A stretch of 39,722 bases of DNA from a virus (taxonomy: Duplodnaviria > Heunggongvirae > Uroviricota > Caudoviricetes): the IMG/VR virus record IMGVR_UViG_2541047869_000003, positions 1 to 39,722 of that record. The stretch is one strand, 5' to 3'. The notes below the pieces were generated by a model. That model worked only from the letters and a program-made list of their open reading frames with translations, did not search any database and was not told the origin of the DNA. The translations under genes and the position numbers were made by a program. Below, in pieces: positions 1,356-33,208 of the stretch (position 1 is its first letter; every line of letters starts with the position of its first letter).

Positions 1356-4064
1356 CTACATTGCCATTAATATAAACATAGCCAATTCGTCATAACGAAT
1401 TCCGTAGCATCCTCCTGCTTTTTTTACAAGAATCATATCTCCTGTTTTATATTGAGAATAAATTTTCTCACCTGTATCAGGATCTGTGCTCTCTTCAGTT
1501 ATCACCTCTTCATCCCATACGTCAGGCCATTCATCGTAACACCAAAAAGCATATTGCTCCGGGTTTAAACCATGCTTTCTAAGAATATCCCCTACGGTTT
1601 GAGCGCCAACGCCAAAATGATACCTGGACGACTCAATTCCTTTGTGATTAATTGAGTCATTAAATTTAAATTTATAGATGACTGACTTTATTTCAATAGC
1701 GGCATTACGCTCTGCATTAAGAATATCATATCTTGTTTTAAGAGTTTCATCTGACGTATTGATTGACCCGGTTCCTGCATAGATAACAGAGCATCTGTTT
1801 GATGGCTGTCCAATAGCTTTAACGTTATCATCAACAGGAGCTATTTTATTAGCATCTGCCAACCACCAGTCTGTTCCATCAGCGTGACCGATTCTTACTC
1901 TTATCCCACTTCTAATATTTAAACTTCCAGTATTGCTCTGTAAATTACAATCTCCTGACGTTGGTCCAAGCAGTACAGTTTTACCAACACCACATACTAC
2001 TCTGGCATTTCCTTTTTGTGATACGAGTCTTGACTCACCTCCTGACTGCTCAGGAAGAGATTTATGGTCTATAAATGCATCGCGGGGGTTAAATACACCG
2101 TCTCCAGAATTATATCTTCCTCCTGTATAGTTGTTAAATACAGGACCCCAGTCAACGCCATTGCCTTCAGAGCACCCGACCATTCTAAGCACTCGAGTAT
2201 TCCCTGCTGCATATGGTAATGAGCTTGTTGATTGCCGGGAAGCTATCATACGTGCTCCATAACCAATAGCATTACCACCATTTATAGTTACATATGCTGG
2301 CTGGCTTTCGAAATATGTACTGTAAAAGTTCATATTTCCACAGTCATGTAGATGAATAAGAACATCATCCCATCCCTGAATGGTTCCTGCATGTACCTGT
2401 ACACCGCGAACTGGTTCCCCTGAAACCTCCATACACTCTGATGGCCGGCTGAATGGCTGAGACAGGTATTGCGATGTGGCAAGCAGATGTGTGTGGTGAT
2501 ACAGGCTGGTAATGTAGCAATCGAAAAATTGCGTTCCCGCCATACCAAAGTTATCTATGTCATTTCGCCGTATAGTAGAACCTACTGTTGCCTCAGAAGC
2601 GTTAGACACTCCAGTAAATACTAACTTATCACCGGATACGGATAATCCTGAATAAGTGAAATTCCTGCCTACAGATCTTAAAACCCCGGACGTTTCGAAG
2701 GTGTGGCTTGCTGACCATGGAATTTCGATAGTGCTGGACGTTACCGCTGTAATTCGGAATACATCATGGGCGCGGATCGAAACACCCTTGAATCCCTGGA
2801 ATCTACAGTGATAATAGTTTTCATCCTCGCCCTGAGCGGCCAGCGTGCCAGATACAGGAATGTTCGTTTTTAAAAGTGCCGTCTTGCGCCAGTATCCAAC
2901 CACCTGCAAATTGCGGTATTCATTGCCAAAAGACGCACGTGACCAAATACCTACATCCCACTCATCGCCAAGACCGGTATTTGCAATGTCTTTATAACCA
3001 TCCAGCCCATTGAAATATGGAACAATACGAAAGTTCTCAAGGCGAACACATCCTGTCTCTGGCATCAATATTGCGGCAGAGAATGGTTTAAGCGTGGCTC
3101 TTGTAGCCCCATTAGCATCACCGTTAGTAAAATCCAATAAATCATATGATGACGCAGGTGCCGTTGTTGTATACGGGTCTTCGGAAGATGGATTAGAAAC
3201 CACACCACCACTAACATCCATATTAGAAACACAATCTACAGTATATTTTTTATTTCCTACACCGTACATCAGGAATGTGGTCCCTGTGGTAATATCAGGA
3301 GCAAATGTTGCAGTATATCCTGAGACCCATTTGCCCACACCAAGACAAATTATCCCACCACCAGAAACAGGTGTTAACGTATCCGTTATTACATACGCAT
3401 TATCAGTACCATAAATAACCTTTCCTGTGTTAAGGGCAGCTTGCCACGCGGCCCAGTCTATTGACTGAGATAATGAGTCAACAAAAGGATATAAGGATTT
3501 TGCTTCAGAAATTGAAGAAAACCACTCAGATAATGGATGATATTTCCCATCCCCAATTGCTCCAAATTGTTTTACATTTAAGAAAAGAGCATTGTTTTCA
3601 TGCTGAGTTATAGTTACAGCCCCGGTAAATGGCTGCCTTACCCCAATTAATGCATCACCTTTTGAATCATCATTAATGTATGCTCCTGATTGAGATAACT
3701 GCTCTTTGAAGTCTGGGCCAAACTGATCTGGGTCATACTTCAGCACATTCGGAAAATAGAACTGCTTAGCACCATATGCATCATAAACAGCCATAGAATG
3801 GCCTTGCACGGTAACGAATTTGGAAATCTGTCCGTTATATACCGGATAACCAGCAGCGTTAATGATGATTGGTTGCGATACAGGAACGTGAGAGCCGTCT
3901 TCGTTCTCCACATAAACCTGAATCTGGTTTTCAGGATTTACCGGGTCAGTGCCAATTTTACCGATATAAATTTTACCATTGGCTACGGCTTTAAAAGAAC
4001 GAGCCATAGTGAAGAGTTGCGAAGGCATGCTTACTACAACATTGGCATTTATTGAATCTGTCAT
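1356..4064 (-). CDS. Tailspike: P22 gp9-like N-terminal head-binding domain, divergent receptor-binding body, C-terminal intramolecular chaperone-like domain
   Basis: 902 aa. First ~110 aa ([60 protein letters not shown]...VLKYDPDQ) match the P22 tailspike N-terminus from memory. C-terminus has an SDETLK...[13 protein letters not shown] motif resembling the autoproteolytic chaperone domain of endosialidases and tail fibres. Confidence 0.85.
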
Positions 4065-4122
4065 TTAATTTGCTCCAGATACAAGGAATCGCCGCAGCAT
4101 GGCTACGGTGAATTTTGGGCAT

Positions 4123-4147
4123 AAAAAAAACCAGCCGAAGCTGGGTC
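4123..4147 (-). terminator. Intrinsic terminator downstream of ant
   Basis: On the minus strand: stem CCAGC, loop TTCG, stem GCTGG, followed by T8. Confidence 0.6.
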
Positions 4148-4191
4148 ATTGCGTTGGTTATCTGTCAGTAGTTATGTACTGAAGGAGGTAA

Positions 4192-5133
4192 TTATTTATT
4201 CTTAAGTCTCACCCATGCGGAAAGATTCGTTGGTCCGTCTGGCTCATTAATATCAACATCTCGTGTGTGATTGATTAAAACGTCTCTCGCCATTCCGATA
4301 ACATACGAGAACTCATGACCGTAGTCGTAGCATCTGCCTGAATAGTTCGATTGAATTTGTTTTAGCGCCGGATACAGTTCGCGGAATAATGCCTGTGAGC
4401 GGTTGGCATAATCCCATAACCATACAAGGCTGTTTGCTTCTTTTGCAGAAAGCTCGTTTGCTTTCTTCTCTTGTTTGCCGATGAACTCACCTTCAAGCAC
4501 TACCCTGTGGATGTACTCTACTGCTTGCGGTATCTGAGATGCATCAAGCTCTTCAATACTTTCCACATTGAAACGCTGATGAATCATTGCATAAGCTTCT
4601 GGGTACATTAGATGCTTTTTGCTGACTAGCATATTTACAGCATCACGAAGCGGAGTCCTGTCATCAACAGATGTTTTCTTACGTGCATTTTCTGCCTTTC
4701 CCTTCGTCCAGTAGTCATGCAGCACAGTAAAGCATTCTTCCTGGTACTGAATCAGTTTATCGCGGATGTCAGCACGAACTTTCTCAGGGTTGATGCTGAA
4801 CAGCCATCCATTTAACTTCTTCAAAGGAAGGCAGAGTAGCTTACGAAGCTTCCCATCAGCGGCAATCATGTTCATATGAACACAGTTGAATTTGCTAATC
4901 TGCTTCATGAGTTTTGTTTGCTGCGTTGACCAGCTCATTCCAAGGTTTTCAACAATTGGCTTCATCGCAACATATGCAACTCCGGCAGCCATGGCGGTGA
5001 TAATTTGCTGACCGTTGAATGGTACGTAAGAGGTGTTCACTGCTTCTAAAATTGCTATACTATTCATGTTGGTTTTTCTCCACGGATTTACTGACAACCG
5101 AAGCCCTGACTGTTCCCGCAGTTGGGGCTTCAA
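4192..5133 (-). CDS. ant: Antirepressor Ant
   Basis: 313 aa directly downstream of arc in the P22 immI arrangement; N-terminus [68 protein letters not shown]. Confidence 0.85.
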
Positions 5134-5135
5134 CT

Positions 5136-5297
5136 TTACGCGCCAATGCGCCCTTCCTTCTTAAAGCTGTCCATTACTCTCTGATAAATCTCAGAGTTAA
5201 CAGACCGACCATTCTCTTCCGCCACCTTGCGTACCAAATCCAATACTTCTTTAGGCCACCGCAAATTGAACTGCGGCATCTTGCTCATTCCTTTCAT
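5136..5297 (-). CDS. arc: Arc repressor (ribbon-helix-helix)
   Basis: The last 53 aa of the 123-aa [56 protein letters not shown], are near-identical to P22 Arc as I recall it; the upstream extension of the ORF is not part of the gene. Confidence 0.9.
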
Positions 5298-5312
5298 ATT
5301 CACCTCACAATA

Positions 5313-5331
5313 TAGGTCCACGGTGGACCTA
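5313..5331. promoter_or_regulatory. Mnt operator (Omnt) within the divergent Pant/Pmnt region
   Basis: TAGGTCCACGGTGGACCTA: 9-bp perfectly inverted arms around a central base, matching the P22 mnt operator from memory; lies between arc and mnt. Confidence 0.7.
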
Positions 5332-5337
5332 TTGAGA

Positions 5338-5360
5338 ATATAGTAGACTGCTTCTATCAT
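5338..5360. promoter_or_regulatory. Arc operator (Oarc)
   Basis: Minus-strand reading ATGATAGAAGCAGTCTACTAT differs at about one position from the P22 arc operator as I recall it. Confidence 0.55.
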
Positions 5361-5387
5361 GTCAATACACTGACTTGGAGTAATGGC

Positions 5388-5645
5388 ATGGCTAGAGATG
5401 ATCCGCACTTTAACTTCCGCATGCCTTTGGAAGTGAGAGAAAAATTGAAATTCAGAGCAGAGGCGAATGGGAGATCCATGAACTCCGAGCTGTTGCAAAT
5501 CGTCCAAGATGCTCTATCAAAACCATCTCCTGTAGTTGGTTATCGCAACGAAGCTGAGAAAATTGCTGATGAGCAGTCTGAAATTGTAAAAAAAATGGTA
5601 TTCGATACACTGAAAAGAATTTATGGCAAGAACAATGAAGGTTAG
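5388..5645 (+). CDS. mnt: Mnt repressor (maintenance of lysogeny; represses Pant)
   Basis: 85 aa, MARDDPHFNFRMPLEVREKLKFRAEANGRSMNSELLQIVQDALSKPSP..., near-identical to P22 Mnt from memory; divergent from arc. Confidence 0.9.
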   Translation: MARDDPHFNFRMPLEVREKLKFRAEANGRSMNSELLQIVQDALSKPSPVVGYRNEAEKIADEQSEIVKKMVFDTLKRIYGKNNEG

Positions 5646-6012
5646 CGCCCTAAGGTTAATTCTTATTAGTATGCTTTTGATAATATCTAATGCATCTTTT
5701 GCATCTAGTGCAGAATGCTCTGCAAAGGCAGCAGATGTTTATTATCGCAAGTTACTTACAGGTGATAGAGACCTTATCCTCTCTGGATTGCGCAGTGGAA
5801 CCGATGGGAAAATTAGCCCGGTTGAAATATCAACAATAAACGGATTGATATTTACTTGTGAAAAAGGAATTGAAAATCAGTCATATGATACAAATTTATT
5901 ATGGGAATATAACTATAAAGCTGCAAAGAAAGCTTTAATTGATGATCATTCAGCGAGAGCGTATGCCAGCGCTCATGTTGAGATGTATAATTATGGTAAA
6001 TCAATAAGATAG
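5635..6012 (+). CDS. Hypothetical secreted protein (Sec signal peptide), immediately downstream of mnt
   Basis: Start taken at the internal Met: MKVSALRLILISMLLIISNASFA|SSAE has a positive N-region, hydrophobic core and AxA cleavage site. AT-rich by eye. Overlaps the mnt stop by a few bases. Confidence 0.55.
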   Translation: MKVSALRLILISMLLIISNASFASSAECSAKAADVYYRKLLTGDRDLILSGLRSGTDGKISPVEISTINGLIFTCEKGIENQSYDTNLLWEYNYKAAKKALIDDHSARAYASAHVEMYNYGKSIR

Positions 6013-6029
6013 CCATCCATGGCGCTAGT

Positions 6030-6320
6030 TCACTTTTTACAAGCGATGAGTAAATTCCTTGAGATGGTATTGCCTGCAAACGCCATTTCGGGGTTTGCTG
6101 ATGCTATAAATCCTTTATCTCCAGCTGATGTCAGTACATCATATCCTTTGCTTCCACACAAATCGCCAGCCTTAGTTAGGCACATCCCCCATGATCCCCC
6201 CAGACCTGAGCAATCAATAGTGTATGCTTCTCTACCATCAGGGGCGTATGTTTTAGAAGATGTTGCACAACCAGATAAAAGAAAGACATTAAAACAAGCA
6301 ACCGCAATGAGCCTCTTCAT
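6030..6320 (-). CDS. Hypothetical small lipoprotein
   Basis: MKRLIAVACFNVFLLSGC has a classic lipobox (LSGC); the mature ~78-aa protein is Gly- and Cys-rich. Convergent with the secreted-protein gene. Confidence 0.55.
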   Translation of the reverse strand: MKRLIAVACFNVFLLSGCATSSKTYAPDGREAYTIDCSGLGGSWGMCLTKAGDLCGSKGYDVLTSAGDKGFIASANPEMAFAGNTISRNLLIACKK

Positions 6321-6415
6321 ATCAATTTCCATATTTAAAAAACCGGAAACATCCTAATGACAAAACAACCAAATGTGAAGCACGAGATAAGATCAATCCA
6401 TCCGTGGACGACTAA

Positions 6416-8530
6416 TTACTCCTGTGCCATTCCGCTTAGCGATGCCACAATCCCAGCTCTCGCTAATCGCTGAAACTCTTCGTTTCCGACTGTATCACGT
6501 ATCGCTTTTACAGCGGCCTTATTTGCCATAAATCTGCGTTCCGCCGCCGCTAATGCTTCTTTACTTCCGCCAGCTCTTACTGCTTTCGTGGCTTCCTGAA
6601 CTGCTTTCTCTATCGCATATCGGCCGCTACGCGTGGTGGCAATTTTAGATACAGCACCTTTTAACCCGGCGCCAACTAAAGCACCTGCGGCAGCGCCTGC
6701 AATGCCCCCTCCTGCTCCACCAACAATGGCACCTGATGTTGAGTTGGCAATTGCATTTAACACTGTTGATGTGACGTTGGATAAACCGGCATCCAGATCG
6801 CGTAGTACATTGGCAGTTCTCCCTGTTCTTTCAATATACTGCTGAGGTTTCACTGCTGCTCTTGCAAGAGTGCCATATGCATCAGCAATTCTTCCGAGTT
6901 CTGAGGAATATCTGCTAATGGCTTTTACATTTTGTGGGGTAAGTATCCCTGCGATATGGTTAATTCCTGCTGCATCAGCTTTGCCACCACGTACACCATG
7001 CGAGATAGCATCTTGCAACATTGATGATATAGCAGGAACACGCTCTGATTCTGGCAGCGCGCGGATCATAGAATGGAACCCAGCAGGACCATTAAGACCT
7101 TTAGCTGACGATGATTGAAGGGATTTTACTCCATTCGTAATCAGTGCATCTGTTGCCAAATCACGCCCGAAAACAGACTCTGCACTCTCTTGTGCTGATA
7201 ACCTCGCTTTAGACAGATCATTAGCTTTCTGCCAGTCATCAAGAAATCCGCCGTTTTCCGCCATTGTGCGCATATCATCAGTAATTGCCCGGCGTATTTC
7301 CCCTGCTCTCCTTGCCGCATTTGCCTCTCCGCTACGCTTATATTTTTGCTCCGCATCAGCAAATTTGGCTCTCCATGCTTTCATGCCATCAAATGTTACT
7401 CCACCTTGATTGTTTGCCTGAACAAACTGTTTCATTTCAGGAGTAAGCGGTATGCCAGCAGATCGCTCTGCCTGAATAACGGCATTACCATTTAGCATTC
7501 TTGCTTTTTGATTTGGCATTGTTGACCGCACGTCATCCCATGCCGCGCGCTCGGCATCCTTCATCTGATCAAGATTTTGAAGAATCTTTTGTTTTATAGC
7601 CGCACTTTTTTCTGATGCCGTTCCAGATGCGGCCCCAAATTCATCAAGGTTTCGACTTAACTTTGATGATATTTCGTTAAATGCTGCCTGATGGGCGTCC
7701 TGAACAATTCCTGGTGTTGATGCCAATGCGCCTTCGGCTTGTGCAATTCCACGACTTCCAGATCGCATTCCTGGTGTTAATGCGTTTATATCAATTCCAG
7801 CAGACTCAGCCGCTTTTGCTAAATCTTCGGACACATTAGCGGCCTGACTGGCAATTGACTGACGCCCAGCACCTGACTTTGCCATCCTGGAAACATCATT
7901 AGCAGAATTCAGTGCTGCACCACCAAGAGCCTGTGAAACCCTTGGCGCAATAACGCGCCCGACACCTGAAAGAACGCCTTGAGCACCAATATTGATACCA
8001 CCGTTAATGGCAGCATTTTGTGCAAAGTCGCCCTCCTGATTTGCAGCATCAGCAAGAGAACCTGCAATCATGTTTCCTGCGGAACCGATATCTCCAGCGA
8101 GCTTTGCTGGCGATCCAGCAGCTTTTGCCGCTGTGCCAATTGGCAGGAGATACCCACCAATTGTTTCACCGGCTTGCGCATAAGGGTCTGTCGGTCGATC
8201 GACTGGACGATAGACATCATCCAAAACCTTTGGGCCACCAAGCCCCTGGCTGATTGCATTAATCAGACTTGCGCCACCCTGCAATACGTCAAATGGTATG
8301 TTTACCAGACCACGACCAGCCTGTTCTGCAATTTGCCCTGCGCTTTGACCACCAGTGAGCCAGTCAGTGGATTTTCCTACCAGAGATTGTTCTTCTGTCT
8401 GCGATTGGTTTTGAGTGGATTGATCACCAGAAGACAGCATCTGAGCAATGCGACGTGCTCCTTCTGTATCGCCTGCCGCATCAGCGTTCCTTAATGCTGT
8501 CATCAACTGTTCACGACTATAGGCCATCAC
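6416..8530 (-). CDS. Ejection (DNA injection) protein, P22 gp16-like
   Basis: 704 aa, Ala/Gly-rich, in the gp16 position after the gp7 and gp20 homologues; overlaps the upstream gene by 4 nt. Confidence 0.7.
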
Positions 8531-21597: not shown

Positions 21598-22047
21598 TTA
21601 TTTCAGGCATTGCGTCCTGATGTACTCCTGCAGGTAGTTAACCTGCGCGGTTATCTTGTCGATTCCACTTCGGAGACGGTAATAATTGAGTTCAGCATCT
21701 GCTGTAAGTCTTGGGATTTCTCCATCGCCCATGCTGCTGGCTCCGGTCGTTGACTTTGCACAGGTGGCGGCGACTTGCAGGCGCTTACGCCCAGCAGAAA
21801 CATCAGCACGGAGGCTTTCGATAGTCGCGTTAGCATCAGCAAGCTCCTTTGTGTATCTGGCGTCGAGTTCTGCTACATCACGTTGACGCTTCTGCATATC
21901 AGCGATGATGGATGTGGCTTTATTGCGCTGCTCTTTGTAGGTCATGGCGTTATCACGGTAATGATTAACAGCCCATGACAGACAGACGATGATGCAGATA
22001 ACCAGAGCGGAGATAATCGCGGTTACTCTACTCATTGTTGCCCCCAC
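21598..22047 (-). CDS. Rz: i-spanin Rz
   Basis: 149 aa; N-terminal transmembrane segment ([20 protein letters not shown]) then coiled-coil periplasmic domain; Rz1 embedded in the +1 frame. Confidence 0.85.
21651..21842 (-). CDS. Rz1: o-spanin Rz1 (embedded lipoprotein)
   Basis: Entirely within Rz in another frame; lipobox LGVSAC followed by a Pro-rich stretch ([16 protein letters not shown]), typical of Rz1. Confidence 0.75.
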
Positions 22048-22529
22048 AAACAGACTTCACGCTCAATCTCACGGCGAGTCATCAGCCCTTTCCATTGCTT
22101 ACCGCCAGCGTATGTCCAGCGCCGTAGCTGATCACATGCGCCTTTGATATCGCCCTGGTTTATTTTGCGAAGAAGCGTCGATGTTCTGAAATTTCCAGCA
22201 CCAACGTTGTAAACGAACGAGTAAAGAGCGCCGCGCGTTGTTTCCGGTATATCGACTTTGATGTACGGGTTAATTTGTCTGGCGACAGTGGCAAGGTCTT
22301 TATTCAGGAGGGCTTTGCATTCTGCTTCGGTATACGTTTTACCGAGCATAATGTCTTTTCCGGTATGCCCGTAACATACAGTCCATACACCAACGATATC
22401 TTTATATGGTATGTAGCTGACGCCTTCCAGACCATCGTTACCACTTGGGCCAGTGATTAACACAGATGCTATAGCAATAGCCCCGCCACCAATAGCCGCA
22501 GCAACGGCTTTTCGTAATGATGGAGGCAT
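22032..22529 (-). CDS. SAR endolysin (T4-lysozyme-like, glycoside hydrolase family 24)
   Basis: 165 aa; Gly/Ala-rich signal-anchor-release segment ([20 protein letters not shown]); E-x8-D-x5-T catalytic spacing; C-terminal [11 protein letters not shown] resembles P1 Lyz and phage 21 R. Confidence 0.85.
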
Positions 22530-32668: not shown

Positions 32669-33208
32669 CTAAATTAGCTCATCAGCTTTACCAGCAAAGC
32701 GCATATAACACTCATGGAACCAGACGTCAGGTATAACAAATTTCTCTTTACCTGACGCGCTGTAAGTCACACCTGAGCGATGGAGAAGACCTTTTCTCAT
32801 AAGAGATAAAGCGACCGGATCGCCGTGCTTAAGTACGATTTTGTTATTTGCCATAACAGCAAATGCTAAAACCTCTTTTTCCTGAATACTCAGAGAATTG
32901 AACAGGCGCTCAGTCTCCACAATTACTTTAGCCTCATCTCTCTTACTGAGATATTTTTTATATCTGTCTGAAGATGCCAGAAATATAAACTCCATCACCC
33001 TGTTCAGAACATAACTGATACACAAAAGCATTGCGTAATACATCCAGTGATCTGGAAGTATTTCAGGATTCCTTATATCTACCCACTCTTTAATTGATGC
33101 TGGGGTGATTATTATCAAGGCAATTAAAATAATAAGCATATGAATTAACTGTTGTAGCGTAAGACCACGCAGGAAGAAACGTAATAGTTCCTGCCACCAG
33201 TTACTCAT
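32669..33208 (-). CDS. sieB: Superinfection exclusion protein B (SieB-like membrane protein)
   Basis: 179 aa; N-terminal transmembrane helices (LIHMLIILIALIIITP, YYAMLLCISYVL); next to N, opposite orientation to PL transcription, as for sieB in P22 and lambda. Confidence 0.7.
   Translation of the reverse strand: MSNWWQELLRFFLRGLTLQQLIHMLIILIALIIITPASIKEWVDIRNPEILPDHWMYYAMLLCISYVLNRVMEFIFLASSDRYKKYLSKRDEAKVIVETERLFNSLSIQEKEVLAFAVMANNKIVLKHGDPVALSLMRKGLLHRSGVTYSASGKEKFVIPDVWFHECYMRFAGKADELI

Follow-up and report, generated by a model that had tools for sequence, protein, structure and literature searches.

Accessory genes for predicted envelope proteins in the sieA slot of a P22-like Escherichia coli prophage

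Described exclusion systems and the slot between mnt and gene 16

P22-like phages have a hypervariable interval, the 'ant moron', bounded by genes 16 and 9. Its P22 version carries mnt, arc, ant and sieA, and the published description also lists unnamed 'unique' genes; the interval is dispensable for assembly/morphogenesis and for lysis, and in P22 it modulates read-through into the tailspike gene (Villafane et al. 2008, PMC2629481). The polytopic inner-membrane protein SieA, ~164 amino acids (aa) long, has no signal peptide, carries a cytoplasmic FxRYPxEAxxFNK motif and blocks the conduit built by the ejection proteins gp7, gp16 and gp20 (PMC10883804). The subject of the present study is two small genes, here designated orfS and orfL, that fill the slot between mnt and gene 16 in a complete P22-like prophage of Escherichia coli, the 39,722-nt IMG/VR record IMGVR_UViG_2541047869_000003; this 39.7-kb stretch is referred to throughout as the window. 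The P22 annotation of the same interval reads mnt-orf59a-tmnt-PsieA-sieA, which agrees with an earlier note, made from the sequence alone, that had described the place as the P22 sieA slot and its two genes as specifying envelope-targeted proteins. From position and targeting we infer the same range of roles as that note did, superinfection exclusion or lysogenic conversion. For the two genes as set out below, anatomy and expression logic are given a probability of about 0.85, and a function in anti-phage (superinfection) exclusion, argued from position and targeting, one of about 0.4.

In several respects orfS resembles sieA. With the exceptions given below it lies beside and convergent with gene 16, it is co-oriented with mnt, it is prophage-borne with a predicted envelope-targeted product, and in several prophages it is preceded by the same promoter/leader and ribosome-binding site. 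The differences are that the product of orfS is predicted to be helical and soluble, secreted by way of a signal peptide that is cleaved off, and that the window's orfS lies on Pmnt and not on PsieA. The polytopic topology of SieA (3–4 transmembrane helices) is seen in neither orfS nor orfL, both of which have an N-terminal signal sequence only, and neither matches the SieA family, phrog_7745. T4 Spackle (gp61.3) is, like orfS, a small phage protein with a Sec signal peptide to the periplasm; it is helical, has a disulfide and inhibits the tail lysozyme of superinfecting phage. Spackle differs in being made by a lytic myovirus in the course of infection and not by a prophage. Homology between the two was considered and rejected, the hhalign probability being 3% and the alignment confined to the signal peptides.

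Parallels for orfL are found among Cor (phi80/N15/HK022), T5 Llp and F-plasmid TraT, small outer-membrane lipoproteins that block phage or conjugative entry via an outer-membrane protein; orfL likewise specifies a mobile-element lipoprotein, with predicted sorting to the outer membrane. The Cor PHROG aligned with orfL over the signal peptide only (E 0.08, residues 5–27), orfL gave no Pfam match to TraT, Bor or Llp, and its mature domain has no sequence or fold homology to Cor, Llp, TraT or Bor. A true homologue of orfL is orf62 of the Salmonella phages ST104, ST64T and L, which has the same lipobox and Cys pattern and occupies the same slot, co-oriented with gene 16; unlike the window, these phages lack ant, arc and orfS. 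No sequence or fold link was found between either product and known exclusion proteins or solved structures, and literature searches found nothing on either family.

The two genes, their products and their expression

Open reading frames (ORFs) were found where the earlier note placed them, at 5623–6012 (plus strand, 129 aa) and 6030–6332 (minus strand, 100 aa). In orfS, the start at 5635 (MKVSALR...) is favoured over the in-frame start at 5623, which is the RefSeq choice, because the PHROG profile and all homologues align from there; the gene then spans 5635–6012 (+) and encodes a 125-aa precursor. Both candidate starts lie inside mnt, ahead of its TAG stop codon at 5643–5645 (5635 is 11 nt ahead of it), so that the overlap reported previously holds for either. 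The predicted signal peptide (5635–5712, +) is 26 aa long if cut after SSA, or 23 aa if cut after SFA, and consists of the n-region MKVSALR, the h-region LILISMLLII and the c-region SNASFASSA, followed by EC. Here, as for orfL, prediction consisted of rule-based checks together with conservation across the family. The orfS N-terminus has the charged n-region, hydrophobic h-region and small residues at −3/−1 characteristic of Sec export and cleavage by signal peptidase I, and the same layout recurs in all 15 family members, with h-regions of 9–14 residues and small residues before a conserved Cys. This Cys is preceded by E or K, so the site is not a lipobox. The mature protein would be 99–102 aa, in agreement with the secreted product of ~100 aa that had been foreseen.

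Across the orfS family the signal sequence is variable and the mature part conserved, the alignment having a mean column identity of 72% and 36 invariant positions, C28 and C75 included. The ratio of non-synonymous to synonymous substitution rates (dN/dS) is 0.12–0.26 for pairs with unsaturated synonymous divergence and, judged by these comparisons, orfS is a real conserved gene under purifying selection. Its AlphaFold2 model is all-alpha, with five helices and a predicted local distance difference test (pLDDT) score of 87. Together, the signal layout and the model strongly support a Sec-exported, periplasmic helical domain of ~100 aa, in which the two invariant Cys probably form one disulfide. 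That neither gene could be assigned to a family, as was thought at first, proved wrong: orfS is phrog_32609 (full-length profile match, 3.2e-84 over 1–125/125) and orfL is phrog_5685, both annotated as of unknown function, and all public copies of the two are named 'hypothetical protein'. Homologues of orfS are extremely rare: searches found 10 clusters in 5.8 billion proteins and 6 representatives in 1.84 billion, and a set of 50,697 phage records yielded a single copy, 40% identical. For both products, Pfam, NCBIfam and PADLOC scans gave only signal-peptide matches (YgdI/YgdR, entericidin), and profile searches of PDB sequences gave no match.

The second gene, orfL, is assigned to 6030–6320 (−) and encodes a 96-aa prolipoprotein; the start at 6320 (MKRLIAV...) is favoured over that at 6332 (100 aa) because the PHROG profile and all homologues align there, and a GGAA Shine-Dalgarno-like motif lies 7 nt upstream of it. 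The predicted lipoprotein signal peptide (6267–6320, −) ends in the lipobox LLSG/C, within ACFNVFLLSGC, and fits the PROSITE PS51257-type pattern [LVI][ASTVI][GAS]C. This pattern is present in 121 of 132 family members, the failures being mostly truncated sequences or LNGC/LPGC variants, and among these 121 relatives Ala stands at +2 in 114 and four additional Cys occur in 116. The mature protein, at 79 aa with 11 Gly and 5 Cys, is essentially the ~78-aa Gly- and Cys-rich lipoprotein (lipobox LSGC) described earlier. The +2 rule for Lol sorting of lipoproteins is established for E. coli. With Ala and no Asp at +2, Lol avoidance is not expected, and the sequence predicts a lipoprotein without an inner-membrane retention signal that would sort to the outer membrane. 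Thus the envelope targeting proposed for both products extends to each whole family, as signal layout in the one and as lipobox in the other.

The family alignment of orfL shows an invariant D, four invariant Cys in the mature domain and a GY motif; dN/dS is 0.03–0.13 (again for pairs with unsaturated synonymous divergence), and by the same kind of comparison orfL, too, is a real conserved gene under purifying selection. The profile match to phrog_5685 is full-length (1e-51 over 1–97/97), and the product is 64% identical over its full length to orf62 of ST104, ST64T, phage L and SPN9CC, described in the phage L genome paper as 'an apparent short gene of unknown function' (PMC8022706). Profile searches placed relatives of orfL, in at least 753 clusters, in the Gamma-, Beta- and Alphaproteobacteria, without a Pfam domain. 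The AlphaFold2 model has a beta-beta-alpha-beta-beta arrangement (pLDDT 79), for which Foldseek found nothing below E 1e-3 in BFVD and likewise no fold match in the PDB. The structure prediction and Foldseek search suggested in the earlier note yielded confident models of both products, and no fold match to a known exclusion protein. The note's statement that both genes are AT-rich applies to orfS (GC content 35.4%, compared with 47% in the window and 48.7% in gene 16), while orfL, at 43.3%, is only marginally so. A plus-strand ORF antisense to orfL (6019–6357, 112 aa) was rejected as spurious, homology and conservation all being on the minus strand.

Immediately upstream of orfS is mnt (5388–5645, +; 85 aa; Pfam Arc 2.5e-28 and Repressor_Mnt 1.6e-16; Arc family DNA-binding protein in RefSeq), the product of which is the lysogen-expressed maintenance repressor of immI. 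A consensus scan found divergent and overlapping Pmnt-like (5332–5360, +) and Pant-like (5365–5337, −) promoter sites, with 10/12 and 11/12 consensus matches, respectively, in a region 88% identical to P22. Their geometry relative to mnt is that of the annotated P22 Pmnt and Pant, and the Pmnt-like site lies 28 nt upstream of mnt, as it does in P22. Since this geometry is kept, and the overlap of orfS with mnt leaves no room for a terminator, co-transcription of the two in the lysogen is the simplest reading, as had been proposed. PsieA and Pmnt are prophage-expressed promoters in P22, and by analogy the promoter of orfS would be prophage-expressed in this prophage too.

No intrinsic terminator was found between the convergent orfS and orfL (5985–6060; folding z-scores ~0) or after gene 16 (6330–6420). 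In the lysogen, transcripts begun at Pmnt could accordingly continue as antisense RNA through orfL to the 3′ end of gene 16, and it could be speculated that the RNA is the key product of the region, either excluding related phages or tuning late or tailspike expression. There is a precedent in STnc6030 of prophage BTP1, an antisense RNA from the same interval that confers exclusion (PMC7067206), and the effect of the P22 ant moron on tailspike read-through (PMC2629481) points in the same direction. Purifying selection is, however, seen at the protein level, with the Cys, lipobox and signal peptides invariant while synonymous sites are saturated; orfS homologues also occur in contexts with nothing antisense to them; and the only Rfam match here is sar. 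Such an RNA is considered very unlikely to be what the region is kept for, and would at most add a layer to a coding function and not replace it.

Cassette exchange in the sieA position

All orfS homologues that could be placed are co-oriented with mnt and belong to P22-like prophages, in which they occupy the slot bounded by mnt and gene 16. Two arrangements occur. In four lineages (the window, locus L044, Salmonella phage MS2 LVA and locus L007) orfS follows mnt directly, with an 11-nt overlap in the window, a 4-nt overlap in L044, and gaps of 14 nt in MS2 LVA and 42 nt in L007. In the others, Salmonella L008 and L009, Pluralibacter L010, and L045, it is parted from mnt by opposite-strand genes and abuts gene 16. 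The P22 sieA leader, TCATGGTA...AAACTAAGGAGG, precedes orfS in L008 and a lipoprotein-orfS operon in L045, and the block TCATGGTATCCTGC-CAAAACTAAGGAGG followed by the start codon is common to P22 sieA, L008 orfS and the L045 operon; in L010 the leader upstream of orfS is recognisable but diverged. The location typical of sieA, beside and convergent with gene 16, is found for orfS in the contexts examined except the window and L007, in both of which orfL intervenes between orfS and gene 16. In the window, moreover, orfL is oriented opposite to sieA, and orfS follows mnt without a PsieA. Being found either behind a PsieA-type leader or directly after mnt, orfS is a cassette alternative to sieA.

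The leader was also traced by position. The sequence TCATGGTATCCTGC.CAAAACTAAGGAGGTTGGT plus a start codon lies at 3449–3543 of P22 (L006), 3921–4015 of L008 and 3402–3496 of L045, and was followed through loci L048–L127. In P22-like prophages this type of leader stands ahead of at least eight unrelated small genes beside gene 16, nearly all of them envelope-targeted, and the joint at which the cassettes are exchanged falls right at the ribosome-binding site and start codon.

The range of cargo was surveyed in 80 IMG/VR loci fetched by similarity to the window's Mnt, in 78 of which the slot could be resolved. The gene beside and convergent with gene 16 follows a sieA-type leader in 64 of 77 slots. 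The position is most often taken by a 129-aa secreted protein (phrog_2651, 22 slots), followed by two N-terminal transmembrane plus coiled-coil proteins, of 107 aa (phrog_5962, 16 slots) and 109 aa (phrog_8100, 12 slots), and a 62-aa protein with two transmembrane helices (phrog_21338, 8 slots). A 140-aa protein without an export signal accounts for 6 slots, SieA (phrog_7745) and a 161-aa lipoprotein (phrog_6067) for 5 each, and a 116-aa protein with three transmembrane helices for 1; two slots are of the window's type and one has no gene there. Altogether, envelope-targeted cargo from seven unrelated families fills the sieA position in 69 of the 78 slots (71 with the window's type included), within 28 slot architectures, and SieA is the sole family surveyed in this position with an assigned function. 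Literature searches found no published account of such near-constant envelope targeting behind one conserved leader.

Comparison of the window with E. coli DLL7555 (blastn) gave 95.7% identity over 3095–5614 and 95.8% over 6007–8365, with none between, and so delimits a cassette, 5614–6007, that is replaced in DLL7555 (L005 2516–4001) by genes for a Panacea-domain protein and a YobH-like protein, the latter secreted or membrane-located. The left joint of this swap falls inside the last mnt codons, and the C-terminus of Mnt is altered (85 aa, against 83 aa in DLL7555). The orfS segment thus shows the presence or absence between close relatives that is looked for in a moron and, since DLL7555 has no orfS and retains orfL, the two are separable cargo. 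As for a promoter or terminator of their own, orfL has a candidate site (see below), and orfS has no promoter of its own in the window. In sum, orfS and orfL look like two separate accessory ('moron') genes and not a new kind of system.

A different view of the pair would be that periplasmic orfS docks on outer-membrane orfL, the convergent genes forming a functional unit. In L007 the orfS-orfL pair is contiguous (73% DNA identity) in an otherwise diverged prophage, the phrog_6067 lipoprotein gene lies beside orfS in MS2 LVA and L045 in both gene orders, and overall a lipoprotein gene adjoins orfS in 4 of 8 contexts. In MS2 LVA (L002 2920–3775) the unrelated, 159-aa phrog_6067 lipoprotein gene begins 7 nt after the orfS homologue, and the two have nearly equal signal-peptide starts (MVKKLLIFSF... 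and MVKKLIIFSF...); L045 has the two families in the reverse order. The partners nevertheless do not form a fixed pair, each being found without the other: orfS occurs without a lipoprotein gene in L008, L009, L010 and L044, orfL without orfS in phage L, ST64T, ST104, the Klebsiella and Serratia prophages and DLL7555, which lost the one and kept the other, and phrog_6067 without orfS in phages Gally, VSe13 and Brookers. Lipoprotein genes are also common in the slot (phrog_6823 in 29 of the 78 surveyed), so that chance adjacency to orfS is likely. A two-part module is possible, but it is not favoured and appears improbable.

Evidence of exchange was also found on the orfL side. The segment upstream of the gene (6333–6400, −) holds a promoter-like TTCACA-17-TAGGAT at 6379–6351, with a 9/12 consensus match only, together with the GGAA motif. 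The window sequence 6297–6400, which comprises the first orfL codons (MEIDMKR...) and ~80 bp upstream, is matched at ~91% in ~97 complete E. coli genomes, where it precedes a different lipoprotein gene, that of phrog_6823 ('transthyretin-like domain'). To judge from the sequences, orfL and phrog_6823 genes seem to have recombined at a point within the signal peptide. The orientation of orfL in the slot is also variable: it stands alone beside gene 16 in phage L, ST64T, ST104 and a Klebsiella prophage, and in a Serratia prophage it has the opposite orientation, convergent with gene 16. Occurring in either orientation, and sharing its upstream module with another lipoprotein gene, orfL probably has its own promoter. 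The idea of an orfL promoter conserved across lineages was rejected, since upstream regions do not align between distant lineages.

Proposed function and the prophage as a whole

From left to right the region comprises tailspike, ant, sar, arc, the Pant/Pmnt-like sites, mnt, orfS, orfL, gene 16 and gene 20. The sar antisense RNA (5068–5135, +; Rfam sar, 95.6 bits, E 1.4e-20) and arc (5136–5297, −; Pfam Arc 8e-31) complete an intact immI region left of mnt. The right-hand border of the slot is formed by the gene 16 homologue (6416–8530, −), an ejection/DNA transfer protein annotated in RefSeq as DNA transfer protein, and a gene 20 homologue comes next (Pfam Inj_translocase 1.6e-58). The gene 16 product of the window is 704 aa long and has no SLT domain; several variants, of 834–910 aa (L007, L010, L012, L044 and L045), carry this lytic-transglycosylase domain, and 4 of 7 orfS-bearing prophages are of the SLT type, as a raw count. 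The tailspike (1356–4064, −; 902 aa) has the P22 head-binding domain confined to residues 4–114, the remainder having no Pfam match. In NZ_CM142696, an otherwise ~99.9%-identical prophage has a tailspike of 663 aa that differs from that of the window, which points to a swap of the receptor-binding module.

Elsewhere the prophage encodes an integrase and a CI-type repressor. It has a SieB homologue (32669–33208, −; Pfam SieB, 3e-20) and no SieA homologue in the whole window (tblastn of P22 SieA, best E 1.8), so that of the two classical exclusion systems of P22 one is retained. Its lysis cassette (21598–22529) includes lysozyme and Rz (Pfam Phage_lysis, 3e-36), which bears on the idea that orfS and orfL are lysis or virion accessories, either a second spanin-like pair or late proteins that shield progeny from debris. 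Superficially, a helical protein with an N-terminal hydrophobic helix beside a small outer-membrane lipoprotein resembles Rz/Rz1, and orfL, immediately beyond gene 16, runs in the same direction as the late operon. But the prophage already has a lysozyme and Rz of its own, neither gene matches Phage_lysis or spanin families, the orfS h-region is 10 residues long, cleavable and no transmembrane anchor, orfS is transcribed against the late operon, orfL is in the opposite orientation in Serratia, and the interval is not needed for morphogenesis or lysis (PMC2629481). A lysis or virion role is accordingly regarded as extremely improbable.

Because SieA blocks the ejection conduit, and its position is filled almost only by envelope proteins, the most economical hypothesis is that orfS interferes with DNA delivery from the periplasmic side and that orfL acts on the outer membrane. 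Under it, both genes would be expressed in the lysogen, orfS on one transcript with mnt from Pmnt and orfL from a promoter of its own. The orfS product would be exported by Sec, oxidised to one disulfide and act in the periplasm, while that of orfL would be lipidated and delivered to the outer membrane; with the envelope altered by both, superinfecting phages would fail at or after adsorption. The target of orfS may be the incoming DNA-delivery apparatus, i.e., the ejection-protein conduit or cell-wall penetration, which would make it a soluble counterpart of inner-membrane SieA and, in principle, similar to T4 Spackle. For orfL, the proposed action is the masking or modification of a component of the outer membrane, in the manner of Cor, Llp and TraT. 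A more far-reaching version, which is tentative and on balance doubtful, is that the sieA locus is a promoter-anchored cassette site at which at least eight unrelated envelope proteins alternate, each of them excluding phages or blocking their entry, and that orfS is the first superinfection-exclusion protein of a temperate short-tailed phage to be soluble and periplasmic; it would target the trans-periplasmic ejection-protein conduit or the penetration of the cell wall, through a mechanism with no relation to that of SieA.

Several observations weigh against exclusion. Phage L and ST64T carry orf62, yet to our knowledge classical genetics recorded no exclusion by L prophages. The surveyed loci are related prophages picked via one Mnt type, and their counts describe a lineage and not independent events. 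The ant moron also holds genes that are not envelope-targeted (PIN-like, Panacea-domain, ant), and the putative orfL promoter matches the consensus at 9/12 positions only. Finally, the neighbours of orfL-family genes in 23 representative genomes are mostly unrelated housekeeping genes, with 3 integrases, 2 LmuB-type genes, 1 AbiU and 1 retron. Individual distant relatives of orfL do lie next to AbiU and an LmuB-like ATPase in Caballeronia (L013/L025), directly downstream of a type IX retron reverse transcriptase in Dyella (L017/L026), and between a prophage cI-like repressor and PDC-M66A/B in Cupriavidus (L016). Given the 23-genome sample, however, the defence-island signal for orfL is weak, and the idea of a dedicated defence-island gene was dropped.

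The same distribution, of a family widespread in free-living Proteobacteria among ordinary neighbours, suggests a general envelope role, and so favours lysogenic conversion of benefit to the host, i.e., an envelope change (in serum/complement, lysozyme or antimicrobial peptide susceptibility, or in adhesion) that would aid the lysogen in an animal host. Lambda Bor and TraT confer serum or complement resistance. Both products are envelope-targeted and probably lysogen-expressed, a PhoP-regulon-type YobH-like gene fills the same slot in the sister prophage, and the strains with at least 99% identity come from human blood and from uropathogenic E. coli (UPEC): over region 5600–6400 the identity is 99.9% to a chromosome from a human blood isolate, and 99.1% to a UPEC strain. 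Against this, of 5426 complete E. coli genomes only 2 contain the region in full, which gives no sign of an advantage across a lineage; that orfS is found solely at the cassette position of sieA fits a phage-specific target better; and neither product has Pfam similarity to Bor, TraT, Ivy, MliC or PliC. Host benefit is rated as unlikely, though by no means negligible.

Nothing categorically new is described here: this is a known hypervariable moron site with uncharacterised exported proteins. What the comparison offers is one leader, many unrelated exported proteins and a single one characterised, and hence a short, testable list of genes, at a time when the gp16/gp20 ejection-protein conduit has only recently been defined as the target of SieA. 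Were orfS and orfL host-fitness factors instead of exclusion proteins, they would be new prophage conversion genes in clinical E. coli. If exclusion is true, they would represent new, non-homologous ways of interrupting DNA delivery by short-tailed phages, in the periplasm and at the outer membrane, with relevance to the host range of phages in E. coli and Salmonella and to phage therapy directed against lysogens.

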